A stretch of DNA of 64,000 nucleotides. Source: an uncultured Bacteroidales bacterium (GTDB lineage: Bacteria > Bacteroidota > Bacteroidia > Bacteroidales > B18-G4). Below the pieces are notes generated by a model. That model was not told the DNA's origin and made no database searches. It saw only the letters and a program-made list of their open reading frames with translations. Shown here in pieces: positions 3,743 to 53,432 of the stretch (positions within the stretch are counted from its first letter, which is position 1; each line of letters opens with the position of its first letter). Location: the NCBI GenBank assembly GCA_963753835.1, contig CAVWDP010000002.1, forward strand, positions 611,578-675,577. Direction: 5' to 3'. A program made the position numbers and the translations under genes.

Positions 3743-4704
3743 ATGAAAAAATTTCACACCCTGCTTATTGCATTAATGGTTGCTGGTTCTGCAATGACTC
3801 AAACAGATAACCCTTACGAATCTTGCCTGCCTGATGGCATCACATTTGGATCACAAAGCCAGATTGACAGTTTTCCAATTAACTACCCGAATTGTACAGA
3901 GATTGAAGGGGGAGTACTAATAGGTGGATCAGTTTGGGGAAACGACATTACTAACCTGAATGGTTTAAATAATATAACATCAATTGGTGGACTCACCTTA
4001 AGCTTCTTACAAATAACAGACTTAAATGGATTAGAGAACCTTTTATCAATAAATGGCAGTTTCATAATCTTCGCAACCCCAAACCTGATGAGTTTAGAAG
4101 GGCTGGAGAATTTAACGAATATTGGGGGAAGTTTGCAGATCGGGTTCGAAAACTTTGAATCCAGCCTTACAAATTTAGATGCATTAAGTAAATTTAACAT
4201 CTATAAATGGCTCTCTCACCATAATCGGAAATCCCAATATATCTACACTTAGTGGTTTAGGTAATATTGATGCAGCTTCAATCGCTGGCATATCTATCAA
4301 AGCAGAATGATTCATTGGCAACCTGTGAAGTCCAAGAGCATCTGTGATTATCTCGTCTTCTTCAACCGGTACTGTTGAAATAATCGATAATGCCACCGGC
4401 TGCGATAGTCAGCAGGAAGTAGAAGATGCCTGTGAATCATTTTCAATTGAAGAATCTAGCACCCTGCAAGATATTATCATCTACCCCAACCCAACCCAAT
4501 CATCAATAACAATTGAACTCCCAACCCAACCATCAAAAAACACATCCCTGACCATTTCCAACACCAATGGCCAGCAACTCATCACCCAACCCATAACGGA
4601 ACCTCAAACCAGAAATCGACATTAGTTCACTACCAGTCGGCATATACATCGTCAAGGTCTGGAACGACAAAGATGTGATGGTTCAGAAGGTGATCAAGCA
4701 ATGA
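3743..4704 (+). pseudogene. Leucine-rich-repeat surface protein with T9SS C-terminal domain, multiply frameshifted
   Basis: Signal peptide, then LRR units (NLNGLNNITSIGG, LNGLENLLSINGS, LEGLENLTNIGGS). The repeat continues in another frame (NLTSINGSLTIIGNPNISTLSGLGNID). SLATCEVQ, ICDYL and SSSTGTVEIIDNATGC lie in different frames. The CTD (IIIYPNPTQSSITIELP ... VGIYIVKVWNDKDVMVQKVIKQ) is split again. At least five frame changes. Confidence 0.85.
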
Positions 4705-8660: not shown

Positions 8661-9382
8661 ATGAAAAAATTATTTTATTTATTAGGATTGATTATATCCT
8701 TGGCAGTTGTGATTGCAGCTTGTGAGAAAACTACATTAGATGACAATACAGAATCATCTATGAAAGGTAACAATGGCTGTGCAAAGATTCAGAGCGGAGA
8801 CATTGTTTATAGTAGCTCACATTATTTAGCAGGAACAGCAATTACAACAGGATTTGATGATTATGGATACAATTATCAAGCACTTAAGTTCCAGGGCTCC
8901 TATTTTAATTCATATGCAGGAGGAAATGGATTGCCACCCTGGGATGGAAACGATGCCGCTTATCTAGCAGTTAATCCAAGTGCTGCAACTCATTGGGCTT
9001 GGCCATACAGAGATGTTAATCTCATGATGAAATGGAATACAGCATGGATTTCAAAAACTGATTGCGATGGGGATGGAGCCTTAGATCGTCACTGGGGTTT
9101 TGATAGTTATATAGGATCAGGAGCTTGGTTGACGAATCACCAGTCGGGTACTTATGAAGTTGATGGTGAGACTTGTAATTGGAATTACTTTGTGAAAATT
9201 ATCGCTGTTCCTGCTGATGCAACGTCATCAGAAGGATCTGGTATAATGCTGATGGTACCGAGATCGGCCCTGTGATTTGGGGCGAATTTGCTATAATTCA
9301 AGAAGTAGAGAATGATCCATGTGCTGGAATTCATGGATTACAATATGTAAGCCCAGATCACGCAGGTTTAGGCGGATGGTAA
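8661..9382 (+). pseudogene. Lipoprotein of unknown function, one frameshift near 9235
   Basis: Lipobox LAVVIAAC. After ...ATSSEG the reading continues in another frame as WYNADGTEIGPVIWGEFAIIQEVENDPCAGIHGLQYVSPDHAGLGGW, followed by a hairpin and T-run at 9406-9432. Confidence 0.6.
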
Positions 9383-9483
9383 GAAATATTAACTAAAACT
9401 GATTGAGCCTGCCCTTCTGGGTGGGCTTTTTTATTGGGGTGGGTCAATTAAATATCTTTTCAAAATAAATTGAATTAGCAAAC

Positions 9484-11049
9484 TTAATTCCCTAGTTTCC
9501 TTTTCAGATCTACAGCTGTACTTGTAATAGCCAAGCCACCCTTGCCGGTACATTTAACGCATGATGGCATTTGGTCACTGACCCGTGAGACTGTTTGAAT
9601 AACCTCATCCAGTGGGATTACTGCATCGAAGCCCGAACATATCATGCTTGCAGACGTATACGCATTAACAGCGGCATTAACATTTTTTCCTAAACAAGGG
9701 ACTTCAACACGATCTGCTACCGGATCGCAAATCAATCCAATCATATTCTGAATAGCCATTGAAGAAGCATCTATGGCCTGCTTAGCCGTCCCGCCAAACA
9801 ATTGTACAATTGCCGCTGCAGCCATACCTGAGGCCGCACCACACTCCACCTGGCATCCATGTTCTTCCGCAGAAAATCCAGGTCCGGCAGCAAAATATAC
9901 ACCTACAATGCCGGCAGCAAAATAGGATTTTATCAACTCATCTTCACTTGACTTCAATTCTTCGGCAATTGCCTTTAGAACACCACCAACAGTTCCGCAG
10001 GAACCTGCCGTAGGATTAGCAACAAATACTTCCATGGCACTTTTAACTTCCATTATAGCAGTGACATATGAAATAATTCTGTTTAAAATTGAATTGTGAA
10101 GGATCCTATTATTTTTTTCAGCTTTTTTAATGAGGTGTGACTGATGATGCAAGATCCGATCCTCATATATAGTCCCCTCAATCCCCGTACTTATACTATT
10201 TTCAATAATTCTGATTATCTCTTTCATTTTATTGAGCAAGCTGGCTTCTGAGAGTCCGCTGAGGCACTTTTCATATATTAATCCAACATCGCCCAAACTA
10301 TAATTTTCTCTTTCAGCATATTTAAGAAGGGATTCTATTGTCGTAAAAGGCACTTCTGAATTATTACCTGATAATATCGGAAGAATCGGATTAACAATAA
10401 TTACTTCTTCAGTATTGGGCAATTTCCTTATTTGCTGTTTAATTTCACGTGGAATTTCTTTTGAGGACTTTATGTTTATCAGCATGCTGTATTTTCCAGA
10501 TATATGATTCACCACAGCATCTTTAGGAATGATTGATTTAATTCTATCAGGAATTAGCTCGGAAGTTTTAGTCAATACCAGCAATTCATGATAATCTCCC
10601 CGAATATCAACTTTAAAATCATTAAGCTGGTAAATGTTAAATGAACCACCTCCAAGAGAAACCGCGTAAACCAGTATATTATTCCCATTTATTCCAGATA
10701 AAGAAATACGAACCGTATTTACATGATGGGTCGGGTAGGAGCCTATTTTATAAATTATCGATAGATCCCTTTCTTCAACCAATTGCTTGGTATTCTTCAT
10801 ACGGAAGTCTGTTATTTCCAATCCTAACAATCCTCCGTTAATACCCATTACAGTTCCCTGTTCCATGTAGTTAGTGGCCCATGCCCCATCTTTATCAAAT
10901 TCGATAAGGGCTTTTTTAAGCGGTTCATTTAAAATATCCAGACAAATCCTGGCTATCCGCCATGTAGCTGCGGTATGAGAACTTGATTGACCACGCATTA
11001 CAGGCCCAATAATATCATTAAATATTGTTGGAAGCATTATTGCACTCAC
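9484..11049 (-). CDS. sdaA: Iron-sulfur L-serine ammonia-lyase (fused beta/alpha type)
   Basis: 521 aa. N-terminus has GPVMRGQSSSHT. The C-terminal half has HGCQVECGAASGMAAAA and LICDPVADRVEVPCLGKN, typical of serine dehydratase alpha domains. Confidence 0.75.
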   Translation of the reverse strand: MSAIMLPTIFNDIIGPVMRGQSSSHTAATWRIARICLDILNEPLKKALIEFDKDGAWATNYMEQGTVMGINGGLLGLEITDFRMKNTKQLVEERDLSIIYKIGSYPTHHVNTVRISLSGINGNNILVYAVSLGGGSFNIYQLNDFKVDIRGDYHELLVLTKTSELIPDRIKSIIPKDAVVNHISGKYSMLINIKSSKEIPREIKQQIRKLPNTEEVIIVNPILPILSGNNSEVPFTTIESLLKYAERENYSLGDVGLIYEKCLSGLSEASLLNKMKEIIRIIENSISTGIEGTIYEDRILHHQSHLIKKAEKNNRILHNSILNRIISYVTAIMEVKSAMEVFVANPTAGSCGTVGGVLKAIAEELKSSEDELIKSYFAAGIVGVYFAAGPGFSAEEHGCQVECGAASGMAAAAIVQLFGGTAKQAIDASSMAIQNMIGLICDPVADRVEVPCLGKNVNAAVNAYTSASMICSGFDAVIPLDEVIQTVSRVSDQMPSCVKCTGKGGLAITSTAVDLKRKLGN

Positions 11050-12167: not shown

Positions 12168-13457
12168 TTATTCAGCAATTGGGCTAAATTCTTCCTCAAT
12201 CAGTTTCACTAGCTTCTCACTGGTCGCCATATGACTGCCCATAAACTGCTTGTGTAATGCCTCCATGGGGATGATCTCTGACTGCCTAACGTACTCATAC
12301 AGGGCTGTGAGGATGGCATTACGCCCACCAAAATGCTCACGGAAATGGTGAACGATCACCTTTGCCTTGGTGTCAGGGAGCTCAAGGGTGCTGTCGATGA
12401 TCAACAAGGTTTCTTCAGTGGCCTTGTTAATCAGCTTATGGGCAAACTTAAGACCATCCTCAGAGGTAACAATGATCACATCGGGCCTGGGTGCACCAGT
12501 GTATAATATAGGCTCAGCTGATAGGATAAGATTGGCGGCAGAAAATCCCACACCCACTGTGACCGGATAACTTCCTTTCTTGGTGACCTCAAGGCCACAG
12601 CGCATCCCTGCTTTTACAAAGAGTGAGGCACCGGATTGTACGCCTTCCCCGGCTGTTCCGCTCAAAAATAAACGTACCGGCCTGACCAGCCTTGGAGTGA
12701 ATTCCTTTTCTATCTCCAGCTTCGGATCAAAAAGTGTGGGTGCGTTTTCTTTTTCATTTGTCTGATACACCTTTGGTTCATTGTCGGTATAAACCTTTAT
12801 CTCAATACCTGCTTCTTCGATCAGGGCCTTGAGCTTCATACCCGGATTGCTTTTAACACCGTAGGAAGTACAGATCTCCATCACCTCTACAAGGGAAAAC
12901 CCATCCCTGGAAAAGGCTTCTGCAAGCTGGTCGGAAATATCACCGATGCCTGTGATCCTGCTTACATAGCTGGCGCCAGCGGCTGTTACCAATCCGCAAA
13001 TATCATAACCCTTGTGAGCTGCACCACCCGGGAGGGTAGGGGTTTTGAAACCTTCAGGTGTAAACTCGCTGGGCTGACCTCCGGTCATGCCGTAAAGCAT
13101 ATTGTTATGCACTACAACAGTCATATTATAGCCATTATGTGCAGCATCCAACAAGTGTTGCATCCCGATGGTGGCACCACCATCTCCAATAAAAACAATG
13201 ACCTTTTTATCTGGATTATTGATGCCGGCAGATACACCTGATGCCAGGGCCACCGACCGTCCATGTAATCCATGCACGGTGTGTGTGTCAAAAGCCTTGT
13301 CGATGATTCCCAGACAACCGATATCAGTTACCAGGATAACATCCAGGAGGTCTTTCCCAAGTTTTTGGAGAGCTTTCTCTGTATTCTGGCTGATGGTGGT
13401 ATGTGTACAGCCTTTGCAAAAAGGCAGGGTGCCTGTATTGATAAATTTAGTTTCCAT
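12168..13457 (-). CDS. 2-oxoacid:ferredoxin oxidoreductase, beta (TPP-binding) subunit fused to a gamma domain
   Basis: 429 aa. The N-terminal half has the TPP motif GDGGATIGMQHL...NNMLYGMTGGQ. The C-terminal half is gamma-like (LSGTAGEGVQSGASLF...GSYPVTVGVG). Confidence 0.8.
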   Translation of the reverse strand: METKFINTGTLPFCKGCTHTTISQNTEKALQKLGKDLLDVILVTDIGCLGIIDKAFDTHTVHGLHGRSVALASGVSAGINNPDKKVIVFIGDGGATIGMQHLLDAAHNGYNMTVVVHNNMLYGMTGGQPSEFTPEGFKTPTLPGGAAHKGYDICGLVTAAGASYVSRITGIGDISDQLAEAFSRDGFSLVEVMEICTSYGVKSNPGMKLKALIEEAGIEIKVYTDNEPKVYQTNEKENAPTLFDPKLEIEKEFTPRLVRPVRLFLSGTAGEGVQSGASLFVKAGMRCGLEVTKKGSYPVTVGVGFSAANLILSAEPILYTGAPRPDVIIVTSEDGLKFAHKLINKATEETLLIIDSTLELPDTKAKVIVHHFREHFGGRNAILTALYEYVRQSEIIPMEALHKQFMGSHMATSEKLVKLIEEEFSPIAE

Positions 13458-14556
13458 GACGCTTCACCTCCTCTATGATTTCATCTGGGCTAATCATGCG
13501 CCCGATGGTATTAACATTATGGATATTCGCCGGGGGCCTGGCACCAAAAAGCAATTTGCTGTAAAGCCCGTGATGATTTTCTTCGGCAATGATCACCTTG
13601 TTGTATCCTGAAATAATATTTAAATAAATATCAGGGATTGGCAGCAGGGTTTTTGGGATGAGCAAAGAAACAGCCTTACCTTCTCCTTTTAACCTCAGTG
13701 CAGCTTCCCTGGCAGCATTAGCCGTGATTCCATAAGATACGAGCAATGTGTCTGCTGCATCTTCCTTAATCAGATCGTAATGCAAGTAAGTGTCCAGGTT
13801 ATTTTCGATCTTCTCATGTATCGCAATGGTATTTCCCAGGGCAGCTGGCGTAATCCCTTCAAGGATGCCATTCTCATTGTGCGTGGAAGCAGTATACCTT
13901 ACCTGGTGCTTGCTATTACTCACGGATAGGAAATCAGGAACCCCTTTTTCATTTCGCTTATATGGAATAAAAGTTTCATCTGCTGAGTAATGCTTTCTTT
14001 CAAGCGGTTTTATCTCTTTCAGGCTATCCAGATCGAAGCTGAATTGTGTCATTACTTCTTCTTTCGATGTGAGCAGGATCACCGGCGTGCGAAGGTTAAC
14101 AGCAGTTTTAAGTGCCTGCTCTGCCATTTCCCAGCAATCGGTTGCTTCTGAAGTGCTGATCACAGGAATGGAATATCCACCCGAGAGCATGCCGTCAAGC
14201 AAGGTAATGTCGCCCTGTGCACCGCTGGTGGCTGTTCCTGTGGCAGGTCCTAATCGTTGCACCAATATGATCACCATGGGCAGTTCCATCATGTATGCCA
14301 TATTGATGGATTCAAGCATGAGGGCAAAGCCCGGGAAGGAAGTTGCCGTGACCGGTAATTTGCCGGCTGTTGCAAAGCCGCTCATCCATTGTAGGGTGGT
14401 GATCTCATCAGGTGCAGCGAAAAAAGTTTTAAATCGTTTTCCCGAAAAGAGGTAGAGGTTGTTGGCCGGCGTAATGGGGTAGCCGATAAACACCTCTGCA
14501 CCTGCCCTCACAAGGGCTTCGGTTATCAATCTTGATCCGTCAATTAAAGCCTGCAT
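13447..14556 (-). CDS. 2-oxoacid:ferredoxin oxidoreductase, alpha subunit
   Basis: 369 aa. GYPITPAN motif near the N-terminus. Overlaps the downstream beta gene by 11 nt. Confidence 0.85.
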   Translation of the reverse strand: MQALIDGSRLITEALVRAGAEVFIGYPITPANNLYLFSGKRFKTFFAAPDEITTLQWMSGFATAGKLPVTATSFPGFALMLESINMAYMMELPMVIILVQRLGPATGTATSGAQGDITLLDGMLSGGYSIPVISTSEATDCWEMAEQALKTAVNLRTPVILLTSKEEVMTQFSFDLDSLKEIKPLERKHYSADETFIPYKRNEKGVPDFLSVSNSKHQVRYTASTHNENGILEGITPAALGNTIAIHEKIENNLDTYLHYDLIKEDAADTLLVSYGITANAAREAALRLKGEGKAVSLLIPKTLLPIPDIYLNIISGYNKVIIAEENHHGLYSKLLFGARPPANIHNVNTIGRMISPDEIIEEVKRHGN

Positions 14557-39326: not shown

Positions 39327-41634
39327 TTAAAATTCATAAATTAATTCCCCCATAATAAAACGACCTGGAGGCAATTTGCCTTTTCGGTCAATGGTCATGT
39401 CATTAAAGATATTCTGTACGGTCAGGGACAATCCGATCCTTTGTGGAAGCTTTTTACTTAATTTTATGTTGAACAGATGATGTGGGTCGATATATTGGGT
39501 ATTTTCATCATCATACCATTCTTTCCCTATAAATTGCCAGTCGAACAGCACATTCACCACTTTGTTTTGCCAGTTGATGGCCGCACCGGCCATGTTGATC
39601 GGAACCTCTATCAAGGATTTCCCTGTTAGGTCTTTATCTTCATTTACCGGGTCTTCGAATTCAAGAATACACGAATGGTTAGTGCTATAGTTTGCACTGA
39701 AAACAAGGTTTGAAAGTATTTCCCAATTGAGTGTGATTTCAGCTCCAATGATCTCTATTTCGGTTATGTTCTGTCGCTGAAGAACAGGCTTCAGGTCTGC
39801 TCCACCAGTTTCAACAGAGTCGCCGGTAGATACAAAATATTGAAAGTCATGACCTCTTGAATAATATACAGATGGCTCGATGGAGATCTTGTCGATGATC
39901 ATCCAGGTCAGCCCCAGCTCATAGTTGACAAGGCGCTCCGGTTTCAGTTCAGGGTTGGCTAGTTTAAATCCTTTGGAAATCTTGCCTGACTTAACAAGGT
40001 CATCGACCTTAGGTGGCATAAAACCGGACGTTATTGAAGCATAGATCCCTAAATCCTGGCGAATCTGATATTGCAAGGCCAACTTTGGGCTAAACTGAAC
40101 CCAGGAATGCTTACCAAACATGGCTGAAACATCTTTGATGAACCCGGTGTTATTTGTAGGATTATAAACGTCCTGGAAGCCATCATAAAACAGGGCATAG
40201 TCAAACCTTAATCCTGCAATGACAGCTAATTTTTTGAAAATCAGGAATTCATCCTGTATAAATATACCAACAAAAAGCAGGTTTCCACCATACTGTACTT
40301 CATCCGTAGAAGTACGGTAAACCTGCCTGGCATCCAGATCCCCCAATTTAACTTCAAAACCGCTCGTAAACAGGTGATGGCGGAAGAAGACACGGGAAAG
40401 GTTGAGCCAGATCCCATAATCGTTTTTTGTTGAATTTGTCTCCGATAACTTGTATTTTCTTGAACTGCTGAAACTTTCATTCTGATTTTTGAAGTCTTCT
40501 ACCTGATAGTATAGCTTTGTATTCAGCTTGAATCTTCCAGGTTGTCCGGTAAAGCTTGAAAGAAGTATTTGACTGTTGTATTGGTCATATGATCCTTCTT
40601 CCTCATAAACCTGGGTACCTGTGCCAAATTTTCCATTATAAAGCCGATAGCTGATGTCAAGCGATGTTACAGTATCGAAGCGGTAACCGGCCAATAATCC
40701 CGCACTGTATTCAAACAGATCAGCTTTGGAGTCCATATGTATCACGGGTTTCTTCAGGTTCCAGGATATAGCCATCCCCTTTTCGGAGAAATCCGTTCAT
40801 TTTCCAGTAAAAACCTGATTCTTTATGCCGGCCAGCTCCGCCAAGATCAAGTGCCCCCCCATAAGTACCTAAAGACCCTCCAAAGGCGCTGACATTACCC
40901 TCAATGGGTTTGATGGGTTTTTTAGTCGTGATATTTATAACGCCTGCCATGGCATTGTTACCGTATATGGCAGAGCTGGGGCCTTTAACTATTTCAATGT
41001 TGTCGATCTGATTTGGTTCAATGAAATTCCAATTCACGGAGCCACCAGCGGCCTTATTCATGGGTACACCATCGAGCAGGATAAGTGTCCTGGAACTGCC
41101 CGGCAACCCACGCATGGTGACACTGGCACTTTTAGAAAAAATTCCCCAGGGCCTGTGTACATAAACATTGGCAATACCCCTGAGGAGATCATCGGTATTC
41201 AGGGCCGGGATCTGCTCAACCAGCTGCTTCGAGATCAGGCCAACCCTGGCCGGCATCAAAGAAAGTTTTCTCCTGGTAAGTGTTGCTGTGATGGTAACAG
41301 GATCGATCTCGACGACCACCGGCCGTACCATGAAGCTTAGTTCAGCGGTTTCAGTATGCAGGTCAATTTGTGTGTTGTAATCAAGATAGCCAATATGCGA
41401 GATAGATAATGTATATGTTCCTGAAGGAAGTTCAGGAAAAGTGAAAAGTCCTTTGCTATCAGTTACGGTACCAAGCTGCAGCTCCCCGATGATCACATGA
41501 GCATCGGTTAACGGACTTTTACTATAGGCATCCATCACCCTTCCTTTCAGCAAAAGGTCTCCGTCTGCCTTTGTGCTTTGCTGAAAAATGAGGAGGGATA
41601 TCCCAAATAATAAAATAGTCAGGAACCGACTCAT
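39327..41634 (-). pseudogene. TonB-dependent receptor (CarboxypepD_reg + plug + barrel), one frameshift near 40733-40745
   Basis: The N-terminal ORF (40720-41634) has the signal, LKGRVMD..., and a plug (TMRGLPGSSRTLILLDGVPMN). The barrel ORF (39327-40775) ends ...GRFIMGELIYEF. The two overlap in different frames. Confidence 0.8.
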
Positions 41635-42528
41635 CTATGGTTGGGTTTTTAGGCTGATGTTCACGCTGCCCTCCTGGGCTCCATTTACTGCATTGACTTT
41701 GAAGATTCCCAGCCTGCCTTCCTGGGTACGGAAAGTGTAGATATCATCAAGCTTCAGTTTCTTGGCCTTCCTCTTAGCTTCCCCTTCATCATAATTGGCA
41801 ATGATGATACTGTCGTTTATAGCGTTATTGAAGTCATCTGCCGCGAGAGATGTTTTCATATAACGTGTTGTATTTATTGATTCCCAGTTGGCAGGATTAG
41901 TAGGAAAGATACCATCTTCAATATTGGCACCCGGTGAGGCAATGGTGTTCTTGTCGATATCATCATAAAAACATAGCATATCGATCCCGGCCTGTAGTGA
42001 AGTATCAGCATCAACGACCTGGTAGAAGTACATCATATTGTTGGCGATATCAAAGCATCCACCAGATTGCTGATTGTCCTGTGCCCCGAATTCAACAGGG
42101 CCATATTCCACGAGAGGAGTATATTGTGCATTGGTGTCCAGGCTTATTTTAATGCTTGTTGATGCAGCATTGCCTTCGCTGTCGCGAACGATAAAATTCC
42201 AATCTTCAACAGGGGCAAGGGTTTTTATAAATATCCCTTCCCACACAAAGTAGGAAGTATTCATACCCGTGTCGAAATACCTGCTGACGCTATCTGAATA
42301 CACTTCGATAAGGAAATTGGTAATGTTCAGGTCGCTGCCCTGCATCAATACCTTCAGGCGGATATCACTTCCTGAAGAAAGTATGGTATCACCAAAAATA
42401 TATCCGTTTTCTTCTACCAGCACGAGGTCAGGAGGGAGATGTTCTACCGTTTTTTTGCAGGAAAAGCTTATGATGATGAGCATAGCCAGAAGGCCCGGCA
42501 TGATCAGGTAGTTGGGTGATCTTGTCAT
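41635..42528 (-). CDS. Hypothetical lipoprotein
   Basis: MTRSPNYLIMPGLLAMLIIISFSC lipobox. Its stop codon abuts the TBDR start codon. Confidence 0.5.
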   Translation of the reverse strand: MTRSPNYLIMPGLLAMLIIISFSCKKTVEHLPPDLVLVEENGYIFGDTILSSGSDIRLKVLMQGSDLNITNFLIEVYSDSVSRYFDTGMNTSYFVWEGIFIKTLAPVEDWNFIVRDSEGNAASTSIKISLDTNAQYTPLVEYGPVEFGAQDNQQSGGCFDIANNMMYFYQVVDADTSLQAGIDMLCFYDDIDKNTIASPGANIEDGIFPTNPANWESINTTRYMKTSLAADDFNNAINDSIIIANYDEGEAKRKAKKLKLDDIYTFRTQEGRLGIFKVNAVNGAQEGSVNISLKTQP

Positions 42529-42532
42529 GTTG

Positions 42533-43117
42533 TTATTGTTCGCTTGATTTAATAAAAGAGTTCTTAATGCTATATAAACCATAACCTAGCATGCCACCCA
42601 GCATTCCGAAAAGGAAGAAACTCAGGATGGTGTACGCAACACCAAATTTTACAAATGCCATATAAGGATGCCCTGATACCAGGTTCACCAGGAGGCGACT
42701 CAGGGGAATACACATATAAGCCATCCCTGATGCTATAGAGATTACAAATAATAGGCGAGATCTTTCCTTCCCAGCTAAATAAAACAGGTCAAGCACGATA
42801 CCAGGGAGCAAATAACTGAATGAATGTAAAACGGTTCCCTGTCCGATACCTGGGATCAGGAGCATGATACCAACACCAAGCATAGCCATCAAGCCTGCAT
42901 ACCTGATATCAGATGACAGGCGAACGAGAGAGATGATAGCCATGAACTCAAGTCCGTGGTGTCCGGGAATATTCAAAGGGATCCTTAAACTAAAATGCAA
43001 GTATGTTGCCAGTGCGCCTCCCATGACTAAAAGGAACAATTCCAGAACCAGTGGAATACTCCGGCTAAGAGATTGACCGGATGATGTCTTTATGGGTAAG
43101 TTTCCATTCATATTCAT
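42533..43117 (-). CDS. Hypothetical polytopic membrane protein (His-containing loop PGHHGLEF)
   Basis: 194 aa with five or six hydrophobic segments. No confident family. Confidence 0.5.
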   Translation of the reverse strand: MNMNGNLPIKTSSGQSLSRSIPLVLELFLLVMGGALATYLHFSLRIPLNIPGHHGLEFMAIISLVRLSSDIRYAGLMAMLGVGIMLLIPGIGQGTVLHSFSYLLPGIVLDLFYLAGKERSRLLFVISIASGMAYMCIPLSRLLVNLVSGHPYMAFVKFGVAYTILSFFLFGMLGGMLGYGLYSIKNSFIKSSEQ

Positions 43118-43182
43118 CGTGTATTTCAGTTTTTTGAGTGATTAAGATAGCTTTATGATCTTTTAATATTGGTCGTACCCAT

Positions 43183-43827
43183 TCATGTATTGATATCCTT
43201 AGCATCTTCCAGGGGATGTTCTCCATCCAATGAGCTAATATTATCCAGGGCCAGTACTTCTTTTATTTCGCGTATGCTGAATACGCCGGCTTTCATATCG
43301 CGTAGTTCTTTGATCCCTCTTCGCCAGATAAACCTTCCATCGTTTCCACTTGCCCGCAGGCCAACAGCCGCCAGGGCGCCAATGATCCCTTCATGATTGC
43401 CGGTAAATCCCTTCAAATAAATATTTGTTTGCTTTGCCAACGCCGTGGCATTATACATATTCAGGACTTTGATCTTGGCTGCCAGTCCCCAATCGATAAT
43501 TTGTTCGTTTACCCCGTCAAATGAGGCAACACAGAGTCCTGCATCAGAACCTGGGGCGCTATATGCAGTTAGATGATCAGCACACAAATCCGTCACAGCA
43601 TTTACATTACTGCACATGAGGTTGATGCAGGCTGAACTGTTCTGAGAAGTGTACCTTATGGCCGGGTCAACAAATAGCTGGTGTCTCGTGATTCCGCTCA
43701 CCTTGCCCATATTTGTTGCTTCCAGTTTGTGGGCGAGTTGCCGGGCCAGGAACCCGGTACCCCGGCTGTTGGCATTATCAGTGTCATCGATGCCTATCAA
43801 CAGATTTATGTAGTTGTCATGATCCAT
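43183..43827 (-). CDS. Stand-alone TiaS N-terminal (DUF1743 / TCKD-like) domain protein
   Basis: 214 aa from ATG 43827. LIGIDDTDNANSRGTGFLA and GIIGALAAVG resemble, as I recall them, the GIDDTDS...GMCTTYLA and GLIGALAAVG motifs of archaeal tRNA-Ile2 agmatidine synthetase TiaS. Confidence 0.55.
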   Translation of the reverse strand: MDHDNYINLLIGIDDTDNANSRGTGFLARQLAHKLEATNMGKVSGITRHQLFVDPAIRYTSQNSSACINLMCSNVNAVTDLCADHLTAYSAPGSDAGLCVASFDGVNEQIIDWGLAAKIKVLNMYNATALAKQTNIYLKGFTGNHEGIIGALAAVGLRASGNDGRFIWRRGIKELRDMKAGVFSIREIKEVLALDNISSLDGEHPLEDAKDINT

Positions 43828-43840
43828 CCGGCAAGCCTGA

Positions 43841-44221
43841 TTACTGGTTTTCCATTTTCTTTTTAAGTTCCAGATAAGCTTCTTCAACTGCATCATCCAG
43901 CTTTTGCTGAAGGGCTGCATAAGCTTCAAGCAGTTTCAAAGCAGCCGGAGTCAACAATGATTGTCCACCTTCCTTTCCACCCCTTGTTTTTTCGGTTAGA
44001 TCATATCCCAGCAATGTTTCTGCCTTTTTCAGGTCACCCCAGGCCTTACGGTAACTGATGCCTGTATCTTCTGCAGCAGATTTCAGGGAACCCTTATCCC
44101 TGACCCCAAGAAGCAATGCATACACCTCTTCTGAGATGATACCCTCACCACTCATGGATGACAACCATAGCTTGTAGTTCAGCAGTACGTTAAAACGATT
44201 TGATTTACCTCTTTTACCCAT
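43841..44221 (-). CDS. ModE N-terminal-domain (wHTH) regulator lacking Mop/TOBE domains
   Basis: GSLKSAAEDTGISYRKAWGDLKKAE...EKTRGGKEGGQSLLTPAALKLL parallels E. coli ModE GSISQGAKDAGISYKSAWDAI...ERATGGKGGGGAVLT. The C-terminus is a short coiled-coil-like tail. Confidence 0.75.
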   Translation of the reverse strand: MGKRGKSNRFNVLLNYKLWLSSMSGEGIISEEVYALLLGVRDKGSLKSAAEDTGISYRKAWGDLKKAETLLGYDLTEKTRGGKEGGQSLLTPAALKLLEAYAALQQKLDDAVEEAYLELKKKMENQ

Positions 44222-44241: not shown

Positions 44242-44266
44242 CGTTATGCAAAGATATACATATCGG
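44242..44266. promoter_or_regulatory. ModE-box-like dyad, site 1
   Basis: cGTTATGCA-aagata-TACATATCgg. 9-6-9 architecture. 19 of 22 positions are identical to site 2. Confidence 0.55.
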
Positions 44267-44270
44267 CAGG

Positions 44271-44278
44271 CAAATTTA
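44271..44278 (-). promoter_or_regulatory. -7 box TAAATTTG (minus strand) for the modE-like operon
   Basis: caaattta on the plus strand. The dyad lies between this box and the ATG at 44221. Confidence 0.4.
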
Positions 44279-44402: not shown

Positions 44403-44897
44403 ATGAAAAAGATATTCAAGATCATAGCAGTGTTTGTCCTGGCAGGATTTATAAATATAGCTGCCTTTGCACATTGTGAAGTACCCTGTGGGATTTATAC
44501 GGACCATCTGCGCATTGAATTGATCAAAGAGCACATCATGACTATTGAGAAAGCCATGATCCAGATTGAGACATTGTCTTCAGAAGAAGAGATTAACTAT
44601 AACCAGCTTGTCAGGTGGATCGATACCAAGGAGCATCATGCCAACCTCATACAGGAAATAGCAGAGCAATATTTCATGACTCAGCGAATCAAACCAGTTG
44701 ACCCCGAAAATGAAGAAGCGTATAATAAATATATTGCCCAGCTGACACTGGCGCATGAGATGCTGATCTACTCGATGAAGACCAAGCAGTCGACGGATCT
44801 CAAATACACAGAGAAATTAAGTGCCACTGTAGATAAGTTCGCGGAAGCTTACTTTGGTCCTGAAGACCAGAAACACCTTCAGGAACACAAGCACTAA
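44403..44897 (+). CDS. sodN: Nickel superoxide dismutase with Sec-type signal peptide
   Basis: Ni-hook HCEVPCGIY (His1, Cys2, Cys6, Tyr9) follows directly after MKKIFKIIAVFVLAGFINIAAFA. The upstream extension to 44223 in the track ORF is rejected. Confidence 0.85.
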   Translation: MKKIFKIIAVFVLAGFINIAAFAHCEVPCGIYTDHLRIELIKEHIMTIEKAMIQIETLSSEEEINYNQLVRWIDTKEHHANLIQEIAEQYFMTQRIKPVDPENEEAYNKYIAQLTLAHEMLIYSMKTKQSTDLKYTEKLSATVDKFAEAYFGPEDQKHLQEHKH

Positions 44898-45137: not shown

Positions 45138-47294
45138 CTATTCCTGGTGTGGTTTAACTACTTCAATCACTTCCGGCAGGTCCATCCCAAGTTTTTCAAG
45201 GTGTGAAATTTTAGGAACACCATTCTTTGTCCATCCCCTGCGCGTGTATACAGCATCAAGCAGTTTTTCATACTGAGATTCCCTGTATTCCCTCATGATG
45301 GCTTTCTTTTCAGCAGTAGTTTTGCCTTCCGGATCAACACCAAGGATCTCTTTCAATTGTTTGTCGTAGCGTTCTGCCCTTGATTCGTATTCTTCATCTG
45401 TTACAGGTCCTGCAGCACGATATGGCTGAGCATCAAACTCCCTGGTTCCATACCCTCTCCTGAGGTTGAAAATCCTTTGGAAGTTATATACACGTTCCGA
45501 CATGGTGATCATTTCTTCCTTACTGAAAGGTTTATCCGTGACAGCAGTGTATATGGTCACATAGTTGTCGACATGCTCAGGCACCTTTGCAGGCTCATCT
45601 GTTTCAGCATTATTTTCCGGTTCAACATCGTTCCATGGAAGTTTACATAAACCAACCAGACCGAACCAGGTACGGAACATCGGGAAGTAATGTAATGCTT
45701 CTGCTTTATCTTCAAAAGTAGGGATCTGGTTATTCACCATGTCCATGAAAATGAGCCAGGCTTCATCATGCTGAGGCCCTTTGTTGGTCATTGCAAAACC
45801 TCCCTGTTGGGCGAGAGATTCCTTGGAAACATATTCTGAGTATTCCAGGCCCTTATTTTCCATTCCAATGTCCTGGAGGAAATCGGCCTCACCCCATCCT
45901 TTTTCAATGAACATTTCTTTCATCTTGCGAACTCCAAGCCCGGCAACCAGGCCAAAGCCTTCGCCGCGGGCAAGCATGTGCAACAATTCCATTGCTGAGT
46001 CAGCATTACCAAAGTTGAGTTTCAGTCCACCGGTCCGCTCTTCATTCAGGATGCCGCTCTCGTAACATTCCATAATAAAGGCAAGCAATGTACCCCAGGT
46101 AATGGTGCAAATACCATAAGTATCGCAATAGAAGTTTGCTTCAATAACATAGTCGGGATTGAAGATCCCGCAATTGGAGCCCAGGCCACCGGCATTTTCA
46201 TATTCTGGTCCGTCAACGATCACTTGTTGCCCGGCATAAGGACCTGTTCTTACCAGATATTCATCCACTCCCTTTGCACAGGCCATATTACAGCCAATCC
46301 AGCATCCATCGGGTATGCCCTGGGTAAAGCGTGCCTTCCAAACGTCTCCATGGATGGCGTCGGCTTCAGGATGGCTTCCGAACTTATAATTGTGTACAGG
46401 AAGCAGGTCGTAATCATTCATAATATTAACGAGGTGGGCTGTACCTTTAGTCCTCATTTCGGCCTGATCGTCATCAAGTTCACGCATCTCCTTATTGAAG
46501 GTCTTTCCCCTTTCCATGATGGCCTGCAGGTCTTTCACATCATTCAGGTTACCCTTTACACCCGGAATCCGGCAAACGATGGCCTTGATCTTCTTGTCGC
46601 GGAAAACAGTTCCAATGCCACCACGGCCGGCTTGTTTCAGCCTTACTTTCTTCCGTTTAGGATCGTAGAAGCTAAAATTGAGCATCCCGATCAATGAGTT
46701 TCCGGCAGCAGCACCCGTTGAAACCACAGCAATATTTTTCTTGTCTCTGTCATCAACAGCATACATCTCTGTCAACACCTCAACAAGCTCATGGCTATCC
46801 ATGGGCTCCAGCGGTGCTTCAAAGATCTCCACACTGTGATCGACACCGTCGATATAGATCATGATGTCTTTTTCAGCTTTTCCCTGCAATTCAATGGCAT
46901 CAAAGCCTGAGAATTTGAGGAAAGGCCCAAAGAATCCGCCAACATTGCTATCAATTGGAATGTTGGTTTGGGGAGAAATGGAAACACAAATAGATTTTCC
47001 TGATCCTGAGTACTGGGTGATCCCGCCAATTGGGCCGGACGAGATATTGATTTCGTTTTCCGGGTCATTCCACTTAGTATCCGGTTTTGTGCCGTCCCAC
47101 AAAAGCCGTAATCCATAACCCTTTCCACCTATGAACTTCTCTTTCATCTCGGCAGGAACTGCCTTTTCCTTGATCTCATTATCAGAAACATTAATGTAGA
47201 GGGTCTTGTCATTATAGCCCCTGAAAATTGGTTTCCATTCATATGACCATTTCGCCAGTGTTTTGTGGGCGTTTTTCATTTCCTCGATATTCAT
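45138..47294 (-). CDS. aor: Aldehyde:ferredoxin oxidoreductase family (tungsto/molybdopterin) enzyme, long YdhV-like form
   Basis: 718 aa. AOR N-domain (GGKGYGLRLLW), Cys cluster DGCWIGCNMAC, and a large pterin-binding C-terminal region. Confidence 0.8.
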   Translation of the reverse strand: MNIEEMKNAHKTLAKWSYEWKPIFRGYNDKTLYINVSDNEIKEKAVPAEMKEKFIGGKGYGLRLLWDGTKPDTKWNDPENEINISSGPIGGITQYSGSGKSICVSISPQTNIPIDSNVGGFFGPFLKFSGFDAIELQGKAEKDIMIYIDGVDHSVEIFEAPLEPMDSHELVEVLTEMYAVDDRDKKNIAVVSTGAAAGNSLIGMLNFSFYDPKRKKVRLKQAGRGGIGTVFRDKKIKAIVCRIPGVKGNLNDVKDLQAIMERGKTFNKEMRELDDDQAEMRTKGTAHLVNIMNDYDLLPVHNYKFGSHPEADAIHGDVWKARFTQGIPDGCWIGCNMACAKGVDEYLVRTGPYAGQQVIVDGPEYENAGGLGSNCGIFNPDYVIEANFYCDTYGICTITWGTLLAFIMECYESGILNEERTGGLKLNFGNADSAMELLHMLARGEGFGLVAGLGVRKMKEMFIEKGWGEADFLQDIGMENKGLEYSEYVSKESLAQQGGFAMTNKGPQHDEAWLIFMDMVNNQIPTFEDKAEALHYFPMFRTWFGLVGLCKLPWNDVEPENNAETDEPAKVPEHVDNYVTIYTAVTDKPFSKEEMITMSERVYNFQRIFNLRRGYGTREFDAQPYRAAGPVTDEEYESRAERYDKQLKEILGVDPEGKTTAEKKAIMREYRESQYEKLLDAVYTRRGWTKNGVPKISHLEKLGMDLPEVIEVVKPHQE

Positions 47295-47381: not shown

Positions 47382-47407
47382 CTGATATGCAAACAAATGC
47401 ATATCGG
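47382..47407. promoter_or_regulatory. ModE-box-like dyad, site 2
   Basis: ctGATATGCA-aacaaa-TGCATATCgg. Perfect 8-bp inverted repeat with a 6-nt spacer. Confidence 0.55.
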
Positions 47408-47599: not shown

Positions 47600-48184
47600 A
47601 TGATATTGCAGGAAATAAAAAATAAACTGAAGGACAAGGTTGTAGGCATTGCAGGTTGTGGTGGACTTGGTTCTAATGCTGCCATAGCACTGGCTCGATC
47701 TGGCATTGGAAAGCTTGTTTTGGCTGATTTCGACAGGGTTGAACAGGCCAACCTAAATCGCCAGTACTTTTTCAGGGAGCAGCTTGGTGAATTTAAGGCT
47801 GAAGCCTTACGGGATAATATCCTTAGGATTGATCAGCATGTAAGTGTAGAAACACATGTGCTTAACCTTGAACCTGACAGTATAGTCACATTCTTTGCTG
47901 ATTGTGATGTGATTGTGGAGGCCTTTGATGTGGATATTGCAAAACAGATGATCATTGAAACAGTCCTGGCAGATATGCCTGATAAATATATAATCTCAGG
48001 GCAGGGAGTAGCCGGATATGGGAATAATGAAGAGATCAAAACGCAAAGGTTGGGGAAGTTGATCATTGTAGGAGATGGGGAAACGGAAGTTTCGGAAAAT
48101 AAACCACCTTTGGGTCCCAAAGTGGCAGCCATTGCAAATATGCAGGCCAACATTGTGCTGGAGATCCTGCTTAATGGAGAGTAG
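47600..48184 (+). CDS. thiF: Short ThiF-family (E1-like) sulfur-carrier adenylyltransferase
   Basis: 194 aa. GCGGLGSN nucleotide loop, NLNRQ, EAFD...K, and a C-terminal PKVAAIANMQAN, as in the roughly 200-aa ThiF family. Confidence 0.75.
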   Translation: MILQEIKNKLKDKVVGIAGCGGLGSNAAIALARSGIGKLVLADFDRVEQANLNRQYFFREQLGEFKAEALRDNILRIDQHVSVETHVLNLEPDSIVTFFADCDVIVEAFDVDIAKQMIIETVLADMPDKYIISGQGVAGYGNNEEIKTQRLGKLIIVGDGETEVSENKPPLGPKVAAIANMQANIVLEILLNGE

Positions 48185-48185
48185 T

Positions 48186-48389
48186 ATGGAAATTTTACTG
48201 AACAACCGCAACGAAAATATTGATAGGGGAGAGATCACACTGGAAGAACTCATCCAGCACAAGAATTTTACTTTCAAATTACTTGTCACCAAAGTTAACG
48301 GTCGACTGGTAAAGAAGGATGACAGGGGGACTTTCATCATCCGGGAAGGGGATGAGGTGAATGTGCTGCATATGATATCAGGGGGATGA
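48186..48389 (+). CDS. thiS: ThiS/MoaD-type sulfur-carrier protein
   Basis: 67 aa ending in ...VLHMISGG (C-terminal Gly-Gly). Its ATG lies 1 nt after the thiF-like stop. Confidence 0.75.
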   Translation: MEILLNNRNENIDRGEITLEELIQHKNFTFKLLVTKVNGRLVKKDDRGTFIIREGDEVNVLHMISGG

Positions 48390-51982: not shown

Positions 51983-53432
51983 ATGTTTTTATTAATGGTT
52001 ATCATCTTTATCCTGGGATACACAGCAATTGCGCTGGAGCACCCTATTAAAGTGGATAAAGCAGCATCAGCCTTGCTTACAGGAACCATCCTTTGGGGAT
52101 TGTATGCATTGAATTCGACGGGAATTTTAGGCCTGGATCTAAGCCCATCGTGGCAGGCAGTAAAAGATGTCAGTCATGATGTGATGGCATTTATTTACCC
52201 GGCGATCGATCATGTCAGGTTCGACAGACTCTGGGAAGGCCCTGCAGAACTCTCACATCATATTTCTGAATTTGTGGTTCTTGACCTTGAGCATCACCTT
52301 GTTGAAATCTCTCAAATTCTTTTCTTTTTGTTGGGAGCCATGACCATTGTTGAAACAGTTGACCAGCACCAGGGATTCAAGATCATTACCGACCGGATCA
52401 GAGCGACCAATAAGGTCAGGCTGCTCTGGATCCTCAGCTTCCTGACTTTCTTCATGTCAGCTACACTGGATAATCTGACCACAACTATTGTGATGGTTGC
52501 CTTGCTGAGAAAGCTTATTGATGATAAGAAAACGAGGTGGTTTTTTGCCAGTATGGTGGTTCTGGCAGCTAATGCCGGAGGTGCATGGTCGCCCATCGGG
52601 GATGTGACAACGATCATGCTATGGATCGGTGGTCAGGTAACCACAGCCAATATTATCATGTATGTCTTCATTCCAAGTATGGTAACCATGATTGTACCCT
52701 TGCTTATAGTAACCTTTACTGTGAAAGGTGATGTACAACGGCCTGTGCTGGAAAATGGGGAACATCATGAATTTACGAGCGCCTTTGAGCGGAGGTTATT
52801 ACTGATCATGGGAGTTTCAGCATTACTTTTTGTTCCTATTTTTAAAACCGTTACCCATCTTCCACCCTATATGGGGATGCTCTTTGGCCTCGGTGTGATC
52901 TGGTTGGTGACTGAGATTATGCACAGGAACAAACCATTGGAAGACAGAAGAAAGCTTACTGTTATTGGCATCCTGAAGAAAAGTGGATGTCCCTACAATA
53001 TTCTTCTTCCTCGGTATTCTTACGGCAGTTGCTGCATTGCAGTCGATGGGCCACCTTGATGTACTGGCGAAATACCTCGATGAAAACCTTCACAATATAT
53101 ATGCGATCAACCTGATCATTGGTGTCCTTTCAGCAATTGTCGACAATGTGCCACTGGTTGCCGGAGCTATGGGAATGTATCCATTGGCTGAGGCTGGTTC
53201 AGTAGGATATTTAGCTGACTTTGTAGTAGATGGGAAGTTCTGGCAGTTCCTGGCTTATTGTGCCGGAACAGGTGGTAGTATCCTGATCATTGGTTCTGCT
53301 GCAGGTGTTGCAGCCATGGGACTGGAAAAGATCGATTTTATTTGGTATATGAAAAGGATTTCACTCCTTGCATTGGCAGGATATATTGCAGGTGCTGCAG
53401 TATACTATTTCCAGATGCAGATCATTGGATAG
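51983..53432 (+). pseudogene. nhaD: NhaD-type Na+/H+ antiporter, one frameshift in the gaaaag run near 52975-52985
   Basis: ORF 1 ends ...RRKLTVIGILKK then garbled sequence. ORF 2 resumes as DVPTIFFFLGILTAVAALQSMGHL in another frame. Together they give about 480 aa with a typical NhaD/ArsB-fold layout. Confidence 0.75.

Follow-up and report, generated by a model that had tools for sequence, protein, structure and literature searches.

A bacterial relative of the TiaS kinase domain paired with an S-component-like membrane protein: a candidate part of tungstate/molybdate acquisition

The window analysed here is a stretch of 64,000 nucleotides (nt) from an uncultured Bacteroidales bacterium (contig CAVWDP010000002.1, positions 611,578 to 675,577), and the gene under study lies on its minus strand, where it was taken as an open reading frame (ORF) of 214 amino acids (aa) at 43183..43827. 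This ORF carries the sequences LIGIDDTDNANSRGTGFLA and GNHEGIIGALAAVG, on which an initial annotation based its description of the product as a stand-alone bacterial homologue of TCKD, the kinase domain of the archaeal tRNA-modifying enzyme TiaS. According to the ORF, profile, structure and alignment data, the TCKD domain occupies approximately aa 8-158 and is followed by the start of a C-terminal domain. The start codon (ATG 43827) lies exactly 13 nt past the stop codon (TAA, 43841..43843) of a modE-like gene, as had been described, and the membrane protein, the lipoprotein and the TonB-dependent receptor reported downstream are all present.

The 214-aa product is a genuine ORF of the window, but one cut short by a 1-nt frameshift. 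The public annotation of the contig gives an identical protein (P0001), likewise of 214 aa, and the homologues, all of 246-257 aa, share a conserved tail (...W-x-RP-ILK...YEWK...IR-x-IS) that is missing from the window ORF. The last 39 residues present in all homologues, EWVRPILKDHKAILITQKTEIHDEYEWKLTHKDIIRSIS, are encoded one frame over at 43184..43065; this 3' remainder of the gene (43065..43184, minus strand, next reading frame), which closes with a TAG at 43067..43065, matches the C-termini of homologues of 253 aa over its whole length. The frameshift site maps to 43185..43192 (minus strand), where the window has 1 extra base with respect to the homologues: a conserved P...W stretch measures 37 nt in the window versus 36 in relatives, an indication that the gene is broken by a single additional base around 43185-43190. 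The real TCKD-like gene is, as reconstructed from these alignments, 43065..43827, and would encode a protein of ~253 aa that aligns with its relatives over the full length. Similar interruptions are found elsewhere in the window. The TonB-dependent receptor is divided into two overlapping ORFs, 40720..41634 (Plug) and then 39327..40775 (barrel), a CitMHS transporter (51983-53432, plus strand) is broken into pieces that match model positions 4-232 and then 247-322, and a protein with the sorting tail of the type IX secretion system (T9SS; 3743-4625, plus strand) is possibly split too. As this kind of split recurs in at least two other genes of the window, an indel error of the assembly is likelier than specific decay; indel errors in a long-read assembly are the simplest account of the frameshifts, more likely though not proven, and a real pseudogenisation of the TCKD-like gene is the less likely alternative.

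The relationship to TiaS is modest when the single sequence is searched and becomes clear with the whole family. Single-sequence matches were obtained to Pfam TiaS_TCKD (E=5e-4; 20.5 bits, under the gathering score of 27), to NCBIfam TiaS (E=1.2e-7) and to TiaS in the PDB (E=0.004), whereas a family profile built from 54 TCKD-like members matched the TiaS of A. fulgidus in the PDB along its entire TCKD (residues 1-151; E=5.5e-9). For P0007, a homologue that is intact, AlphaFold2 gave a model of high confidence (predicted local distance difference test, pLDDT, 91.9; predicted template-modelling score, pTM, 0.90), and the best Foldseek matches of this model in the PDB are the five TiaS entries (E=6.8e-11, root-mean-square deviation 2.3 Å over 153 columns). 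The next unrelated match comes only at E=3.5e-3, in a weak second tier that includes the pterin pyrophosphokinase HPPK (E ~4e-3) and PII-like proteins (E ~4e-3 to 1e-2). In the alignment, the D-D-T-D motif and the Thr of RGTGF correspond to D8/D9/T10/D11 and to T18 of TiaS, its autophosphorylated threonine, and are invariant in the 54 members, as are an R, an N and the GxIGALAAxG positions common to TiaS and the TCKD-like family. The roles of the DDTD and Thr18 residues in TiaS are those reported by Terasaka and co-workers and by Osawa and co-workers, both in 2011, and the TiaS kinase reportedly splits ATP and transfers a phosphate to an oxygen of its substrate. Altogether, the proposal of a stand-alone bacterial TCKD homologue is borne out by the family profile, the predicted structure and the catalytic motifs: TiaS heads the structural comparison, the ATP-site residues are conserved, and in the Pfam search the lone sequence falls short of the gathering score.

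As originally annotated, the protein lacks the other domains of TiaS, since both the hidden Markov model (HMM) and the Foldseek alignments of the ~253-aa protein end at about residue 151-155 and the ferredoxin-like (FLD), OB and zinc-ribbon domains are absent. It is not, however, a bare kinase domain. After residue ~152 there follows a C-terminal domain of ~95 aa, conserved and confidently modelled, which is mostly beta, does not follow a beta-alpha-beta-beta-alpha-beta order and contains the invariant motifs GNDGRFxW, ELR, WxRP and YEWK. HMM and Foldseek comparisons gave no counterpart of it in TiaS, the TCKD+FLD fragment 3U02 included. This last PDB entry (252 aa) was also considered as an archaeal stand-alone orthologue and rejected, being a fragment of P. 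furiosus TiaS according to its TiaS-type motifs and its Foldseek title. The TCKD-like protein thus has the kinase module of TiaS but is not TiaS. On the other hand, the best match to a curated profile is that of methanogenesis marker protein 11 (Mmp11; NCBIfam TIGR03280), with E=1.9e-12 and 46.9 bits against a cut-off of 255.8, restricted to model positions 135-284 of 292. The frameshift, the C-terminal domain, Mmp11 as closest curated relative and the S-component-like partner described below had all been missed by the initial annotation.

The family is large and almost devoid of names. The relatives retrieved by word-indexed searches number 3,593 and at least 7,157, virtually all under the name 'hypothetical protein', and one record of the Joint Genome Institute (JGI) automatically names a homologue TiaS. 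When 1.84 billion cluster representatives were searched exhaustively with an HMM, 1,099 clusters (50% identity) passed a threshold of E<=1e-3 and 314 one of E<=1e-30, with representatives mostly of 240-260 aa. Screening a single genome for each species gave relatives in at least 494 genomes, nearly all of them metagenome-assembled genomes (MAGs). Carriers are mostly Bacteroidales and other Bacteroidota, and further ones belong to the Gammaproteobacteria (Steroidobacteraceae-like), Planctomycetota, Acidobacteriota, Chloroflexota and Alcaligenaceae. A divergent subfamily (P0414, P0442 and P0474) has GNDGE-x-KGG in place of GNDGRFxW and a Cys-rich, zinc-ribbon-like C-terminal tail (C-x-NC-x-x-RRWT-x-x-x-F-x-C), which is not decisive as a clue to function. 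Fusions and extensions were also considered as functional clues and set aside as not decisive: P0468 (DAO + BFD) is possibly an artefact of gene calling, and the N-terminal extensions of P0461 and P0474 (200 aa in the latter) contain no known domain.

A view of the genomic surroundings was obtained by calling and clustering the ORFs of 80 loci carrying a TCKD-like gene, 62 of which reach at least 9 kb (hereafter long loci), together with the public annotations of 9 additional loci. The most constant neighbour is a protein of ~190 aa with six transmembrane helices, here called Memb, which follows the TCKD-like gene directly in 77 of the 80 loci and lies in the window at 42533..43111 (minus strand). 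Its start (MNG...) overlaps the final ~47 nt of the TCKD-like gene of the window; across loci the overlap is ~50 nt and out of frame, and public gene callers independently give the same overlap in Chloroflexota loci. In one locus (L047) a ModE-like gene has been inserted between both genes, and yet the N-terminus of Memb is unchanged. The overlapping starts and the retention of this N-terminus argue for translational coupling of the two proteins and for a putative stoichiometric complex between them.

No sequence match for Memb was found in Pfam, NCBIfam or the PDB. Its AlphaFold2 model (pLDDT 86), compared by Foldseek, points to a fold like that of the S-components of energy-coupling factor (ECF) transporters: the top seven PDB matches are all S-components (RibU, YkoE, PanT), with template-modelling scores from 0.5 up to 0.59/0.65 and probabilities of 0.77-1.0, and the probability collapses beyond these seven. 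According to the positive-inside rule, both termini of Memb are predicted to be cytoplasmic. A conserved motif, R-x-PL-xx-PGHHG-x-E, falls in the predicted outer loop 1, which in S-components forms the lid over the binding pocket, and other conserved positions, occupied by Arg, Lys and Tyr, are close to the predicted outer face. The conserved R/H/H/E/R/K set in these predicted outer loops would suit an anionic or metal ligand.

Downstream of Memb, the operon of the window continues with envelope genes. A lipoprotein of unknown family (41635..42582, minus strand), with a signal peptide ending in ...IISFSC, is a putative surface or periplasmic partner of the receptor and is found at this place in 55 of the 80 loci. 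The TonB-dependent receptor follows (39327..41634, minus strand), with CarboxypepD_reg and Plug domains recognised by Pfam in its first ORF and the barrel in the second; homologous loci have a single ORF of 690-790 aa, and a receptor is present in ~60 of the 80. Assignment of the receptor to a specific subfamily was rejected, all matches being generic and below cut-offs. A further protein, of 280 aa and with a sorting tail of the T9SS type, accompanies the operon in 35 Bacteroidota loci. Loci of monoderm Chloroflexota and of Planctomycetota have instead a lipoprotein of ~150 aa just upstream of the TCKD-like gene. This lipoprotein stands alone in L045 (545-1009), L077 (7373-7825), L081 (7516-7998) and L087 (7505-7999), and its domain also forms the N-terminal part of a fusion with the tungstate-binding protein TupA, recognised by a TTTSTQDSGL motif, in L081 (9250-10563) and L088 (5611-6915). 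This domain shows the conserved pattern ...EG..L..VL..AGV...KAWVKDV..I.V and matches no Pfam or PDB profile; a supposed resemblance to the molybdopterin domain of the sulfite-oxidase type was discarded when Pfam and PDB profile searches gave nothing. The small lipoprotein has no detectable homology to the lipoprotein or to the T9SS protein of Bacteroidota, nor do these two show any to each other.

The gene that precedes the TCKD-like gene encodes a ModE-like regulator (43841..44221, minus strand; NCBIfam ModE_repress E=3.4e-19) of 126 aa from ATG 44221, which consists of the N-terminal helix-turn-helix (HTH) region only, the Mop/TOBE domains being absent according to Pfam and NCBIfam. Homologues begin with MGKRGKSNRF, and the gene occurs in 40 of the 80 loci, mostly directly upstream of the TCKD-like gene. 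In 15 loci, a 93-aa cupin of the PpnP/DUF1255 type (Pfam Ppnp E=5e-29) is encoded directly upstream of the ModE-like gene, at ~370 nt (L020, L021, L025, L028, L033, L037, L048, L053, L057, L064, L073 and L078 among them); next to a regulator without Mop domains, this cupin could be a small ligand-binding partner.

Aligned upstream regions revealed a palindrome, CG[A/T]TATG-N10-CATA[A/T]CG, situated right after a conserved -7 box and ~40 nt before the ModE-like start codon. In the window, the predicted operator of ModE type, CGATATGTATATCTTTGCATAACG, occupies 44242..44265, between the promoter and the ModE-like gene, with the -7 box TAAATTTG (44271..44278, minus strand) directly upstream of it; the form of this box, TAnnTTTG, is that of the Bacteroidetes promoter consensus. 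A second predicted operator, TGATATGCAAACAAATGCATATCG, lies at 47383..47406, in the divergent region between the genes aor and thiF and ~90 nt upstream of the aor start. The inverted repeat is of the CGTTAT-N12-ATAACG type, and its half-site and spacing presumably resemble those of the E. coli modA operator. A shorter exact palindrome, GATATGTATATC, was also considered as the operator and dropped in favour of the wider repeat. In ~1 Mb of locus DNA, CGATATG-N10-CATATCG occurs 56 times against 0.07 expected, whereas the window has, with up to 1 mismatch permitted, exactly two sites against 0.02 expected, one before the operon and the other before aor. Among the loci, the operator precedes the ModE-like gene in 27 of the 39 that have this gene, is found at the junction of Memb and the lipoprotein in 28, some of them without an adjacent ModE-like gene, and in L078 precedes aor by 111 nt, a position equivalent to that of the second site of the window. 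Riboswitches, the molybdenum cofactor (Moco) class included, were not found by Rfam in the window or in 19 loci.

The gene behind the second predicted operator encodes an aldehyde:ferredoxin oxidoreductase (AOR) of the tungsten type (45138..47294, minus strand; Pfam AFOR_N E=1.5e-46, AFOR_C E=5.7e-96), which is likely the consumer of the metal and is adjacent in 25 of the 80 loci. Beside it, on the plus strand (47600..48389), are a ThiF-type adenylyltransferase (47600..48184), with a match above the NCBIfam cut-off, and a ThiS/MoaD-like sulfur carrier (~48186..48389); ThiF recurs beside AOR in 19 of the 80 loci. This pair may serve sulfur transfer to the pterin dithiolene of the tungsten cofactor and not thiamine synthesis.

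Beyond the window, one or more genes for a ModE-like protein, AOR, the alpha, beta or gamma subunit of formate dehydrogenase, MoaA, MoaC or MoeA are present in 41 of the 62 long loci. In Gammaproteobacteria, the pair of TCKD-like and Memb genes follows genes of the fdnGHI type and a TonB-dependent receptor gene is convergent. Loci of Chloroflexota type place the pair either between modA-modB-mop and tupABC, behind a regulator with a PBP_like domain, or beside AOR, MoaD-like, MobA-like and two MoeA genes. Memb is missing from two kinds of locus: in L083 and L084 the TCKD-like gene abuts modABC, and in the Thermoflexales MAG L086 a MoSto-beta-like gene (8770-9600; E=3.7e-76 to PDB 2OGX_B) lies immediately downstream. 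The latter encodes a close homologue of the beta-subunit of the molybdenum storage protein of Azotobacter, apparently without an alpha-subunit gene alongside. These Memb-less loci with modABC or a MoSto-like gene point to the oxyanion itself, not to an organic vitamin, and suggest that the TCKD-like protein acts on the oxyanion or just downstream of it. The metal-related operon of the initial annotation is thus upheld by a regulon of ModE-type operators and by molybdenum (Mo) and tungsten (W) transport, cofactor-synthesis and enzyme genes that recur across phyla, and the association that it drew holds in the ModE-like (40/80), TonB-dependent receptor (~60/80) and aor (25/80) counts. On these grounds, the TCKD-like family very probably belongs to Mo/W homeostasis.

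Two other observations concern the surroundings. A nickel superoxide dismutase (Sod_Ni, 44403-44897, plus strand, E=2e-27) is divergent from the ModE-like operon and has an N-terminal leader before its nickel hook (HCEVPCGIY); it is adjacent in 7 of the 80 loci only, all close relatives, and for this reason is probably not part of the system. Two adjacent genes at 12168-14556 (minus strand) encode a 2-oxoacid:ferredoxin oxidoreductase (POR_N/PFOR_II and TPP_enzyme_C/POR), which fits an anaerobic, ferredoxin-based metabolism alongside AOR.

The reading that we favour, to which we give about an even chance, is that the TCKD-like gene product is the cytoplasmic ATP-using component of an undescribed module for tungstate/molybdate acquisition. 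We infer the use of ATP, a W/Mo oxyanion as substrate and a physical or functional coupling to transport. In Bacteroidota, the surface lipoprotein and the TonB-dependent receptor, often with the T9SS-secreted protein, would take W/Mo species across the outer membrane, and Memb, as a six-helix permease resembling ECF S-components, would move them across the inner membrane. The TCKD-like protein, translationally coupled to this permease, would use ATP at its DDTD/Thr site either to drive transport or to trap or activate the oxyanion for cofactor insertion (MoeA type) or storage. The short ModE-like regulator would repress the set through the CGATATG-N10-CATATCG operators, in co-regulation with the tungstoenzyme AOR. 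A narrower version, that the TCKD-like protein and Memb together constitute a tungstate/molybdate transporter of a new class, primary or trapping, in which a TiaS-type kinase fold replaces the ABC ATPase or activates the oxyanion, fed in Bacteroidota by a TonB-dependent W/Mo receptor, is more doubtful and is put forward tentatively.

Several points weigh against an acquisition module of this kind. The TCKD family offers no direct precedent for a kinase whose substrate is an oxyanion, given that TiaS phosphorylates a carbonyl oxygen, and a phospho- or adenylyl-tungstate would be labile. The similarity of Memb to S-components (Foldseek E 0.09-0.9) is a resemblance at the level of fold and not a proven homology. 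Organic vitamins or cations are the usual cargo of S-components, which as a rule depend on EcfT/EcfA, and neither the conserved neighbours in the 80 loci nor the 9 annotated contexts include genes for EcfT (CbiQ) or for paired ECF ATPases. Several Chloroflexota loci have dedicated Mod/Tup ABC importers in the same operon, where a third importer looks redundant, and in 21 of the 62 long loci the bare five-gene operon sits in unrelated surroundings with no Mo/W gene nearby. A literature search found no paper on the TCKD-like family. Finally, if the frameshifts in the TCKD-like gene and in the receptor are real, the system may be inactive in the genome of the window.

Alternatively, the TCKD-like protein may be no part of transport, but a cytoplasmic enzyme of Mo/W-cofactor maturation or metal handling, or a nucleotide-sensing regulator, whether through activation of pterin or metal before a MoeA-type insertion, loading of a storage protein or a PII-like gating of the permease. 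The presence of MoeA, MobA, MoaD-like and AOR genes as neighbours, and of a MoSto-beta-like protein whose storage is ATP-dependent, agrees with such a role, as do the two kinds of locus in which the TCKD-like gene does without Memb and the weak fold resemblance to PII-like proteins (E ~4e-3 to 1e-2), which pair genetically with transporters. We regard this explanation as unlikely, considering the near-obligatory overlapping pairing with Memb (77/80 loci) and the position of the TCKD-like gene ahead of the other structural genes in an import operon that spans the envelope and that in 21 loci has no cofactor genes nearby; the retained catalytic DDTD/Thr motif argues further against a purely regulatory binder.

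A different substrate for the same import route is proposed by cofactor salvage, in which the receptor and Memb would import an organic molecule related to the Mo cofactor (a pterin precursor, dephospho-molybdopterin, a breakdown product of cyclic pyranopterin monophosphate or a metallophore complex) and the TCKD-like kinase would trap it by phosphorylation. Here the identity of the best structural matches of Memb, the vitamin S-components RibU, YkoE and PanT, is in line with an organic substrate, and a TonB-dependent receptor with a surface lipoprotein is the pattern by which Bacteroidota capture vitamins and cofactors. The chemistry of TiaS, phosphorylation of an organic carbonyl oxygen, the permease-kinase pattern of PnuC/NadR and ThiW/ThiM and, weakly, the presence of HPPK in the second tier of Foldseek matches (E ~4e-3) go in the same direction. 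However, the loci often hold the de novo genes MoaA, MoaC and MoeA, the Memb-less loci L083 and L086 abut modABC or the MoSto-like gene, both oxyanion-only, ModE-type repression is typical of metal uptake, and neither metallophore biosynthesis genes at the loci nor, by Rfam in the window and 19 loci, a Moco riboswitch were seen. All in all, salvage is improbable too.

Synthesis of a small secreted W/Mo chelator by a TiaS-like ligase through ATP-dependent formation of a C-N bond, as when agmatidine is made, with export by Memb and recapture by the lipoprotein and the receptor, would exploit the fact that TiaS is an ATP-dependent amine-carbonyl ligase, and the arrangement of receptor, lipoprotein and secreted protein does resemble metallophore or hemophore systems. 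This is nevertheless very unlikely: a single 250-aa enzyme has no further biosynthetic genes beside it, the S-component fold is that of importers, the module also occurs in monoderm Chloroflexota with ABC importers and no TonB-dependent receptor, and the Bacteroidota operon would be left without an inner-membrane importer. Lastly, that the protein is a bacterial enzyme of tRNA C34 modification equivalent to TiaS (agmatidine-like, on tRNA-Ile2) can be given almost no credence (the initial annotation had also judged it unlikely), because the TCKD homology with retained catalytic residues and the one JGI homologue auto-named TiaS are outweighed by the absence of the tRNA-holding FLD, OB and zinc ribbon (matches end at TCKD residue ~151-155), the pairing with a membrane protein, the ModE-type operator and Mo/W-linked context, the lack of any association with translation genes in the 80 loci and the decoding of AUA through TilS in bacteria.

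If the TCKD-like protein does work as the ATP-using part of tungstate/molybdate acquisition, a rare fold would gain a second function, and a new mechanism of transport or activation would be at hand, with an operator and a regulon that can be put to the test. AOR and formate dehydrogenase, which use W or Mo, are central to anaerobic carbon metabolism, and W uptake in Bacteroidota is poorly understood. To our knowledge, the uptake of W and Mo is limited to ModABC, TupABC and WtpABC, with no TonB-dependent or S-component-type route established, and we know of no description of a TCKD-fold protein combined with an S-component-like permease, a TonB receptor and ModE-type control. By extension, Mmp11, which is restricted to archaeal methanogens and has no known function, would act in W/Mo handling for formylmethanofuran dehydrogenase, in what would be the first lead on this protein.

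Compared with known systems, each part of the module has a relative from which it differs in a definite way. With TiaS (PF22641; PDB 3AMT, 3AMU and 4RVZ) the TCKD-like protein shares the fold over ~150 residues, the GIDDTD motif, the Thr18 equivalent and the closing GxIGALAAVG helix, but identity is only ~22-25%, the family has invariants of its own (TRHQL, YTSQNSSAC, GSDAGLC, GNDGRFxW and WxRP) and a different C-terminal domain of ~95 aa, and the protein occurs in bacteria, has a membrane protein as its partner and is regulated together with Mo/W genes. The C-terminal half of Mmp11 holds a TCKD-like domain closer to the bacterial family than that of TiaS, although it comes with a 134-residue N-terminal part of its own and without the C-terminal domain of the TCKD-like family. 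Memb is similar to ECF S-components in its six-helix bundle, its ~190 aa and the cytoplasmic termini predicted by the positive-inside rule, whereas no sequence similarity exists and its coupling would be to a TCKD-fold protein rather than to EcfT/EcfA-A'. As in the ModE/ModABC, TupABC and WtpABC systems, there is a ModE-type HTH with an inverted-repeat operator, and the regulon covers the Mo/W enzyme gene aor; in contrast, the regulator of the window is without Mop/TOBE, the transport proteins are non-ABC and the outer-membrane step is TonB-dependent. Finally, the permease-kinase pairs PnuC/NadR and ThiW/ThiM and the PII-transporter pairs GlnK/AmtB and SbtB/SbtA have other folds and other substrates, and they resemble the TCKD-like protein and Memb in logic alone, in that a small nucleotide-using protein of the cytoplasm, presumably acting on or behind a small permease, is encoded together with it.

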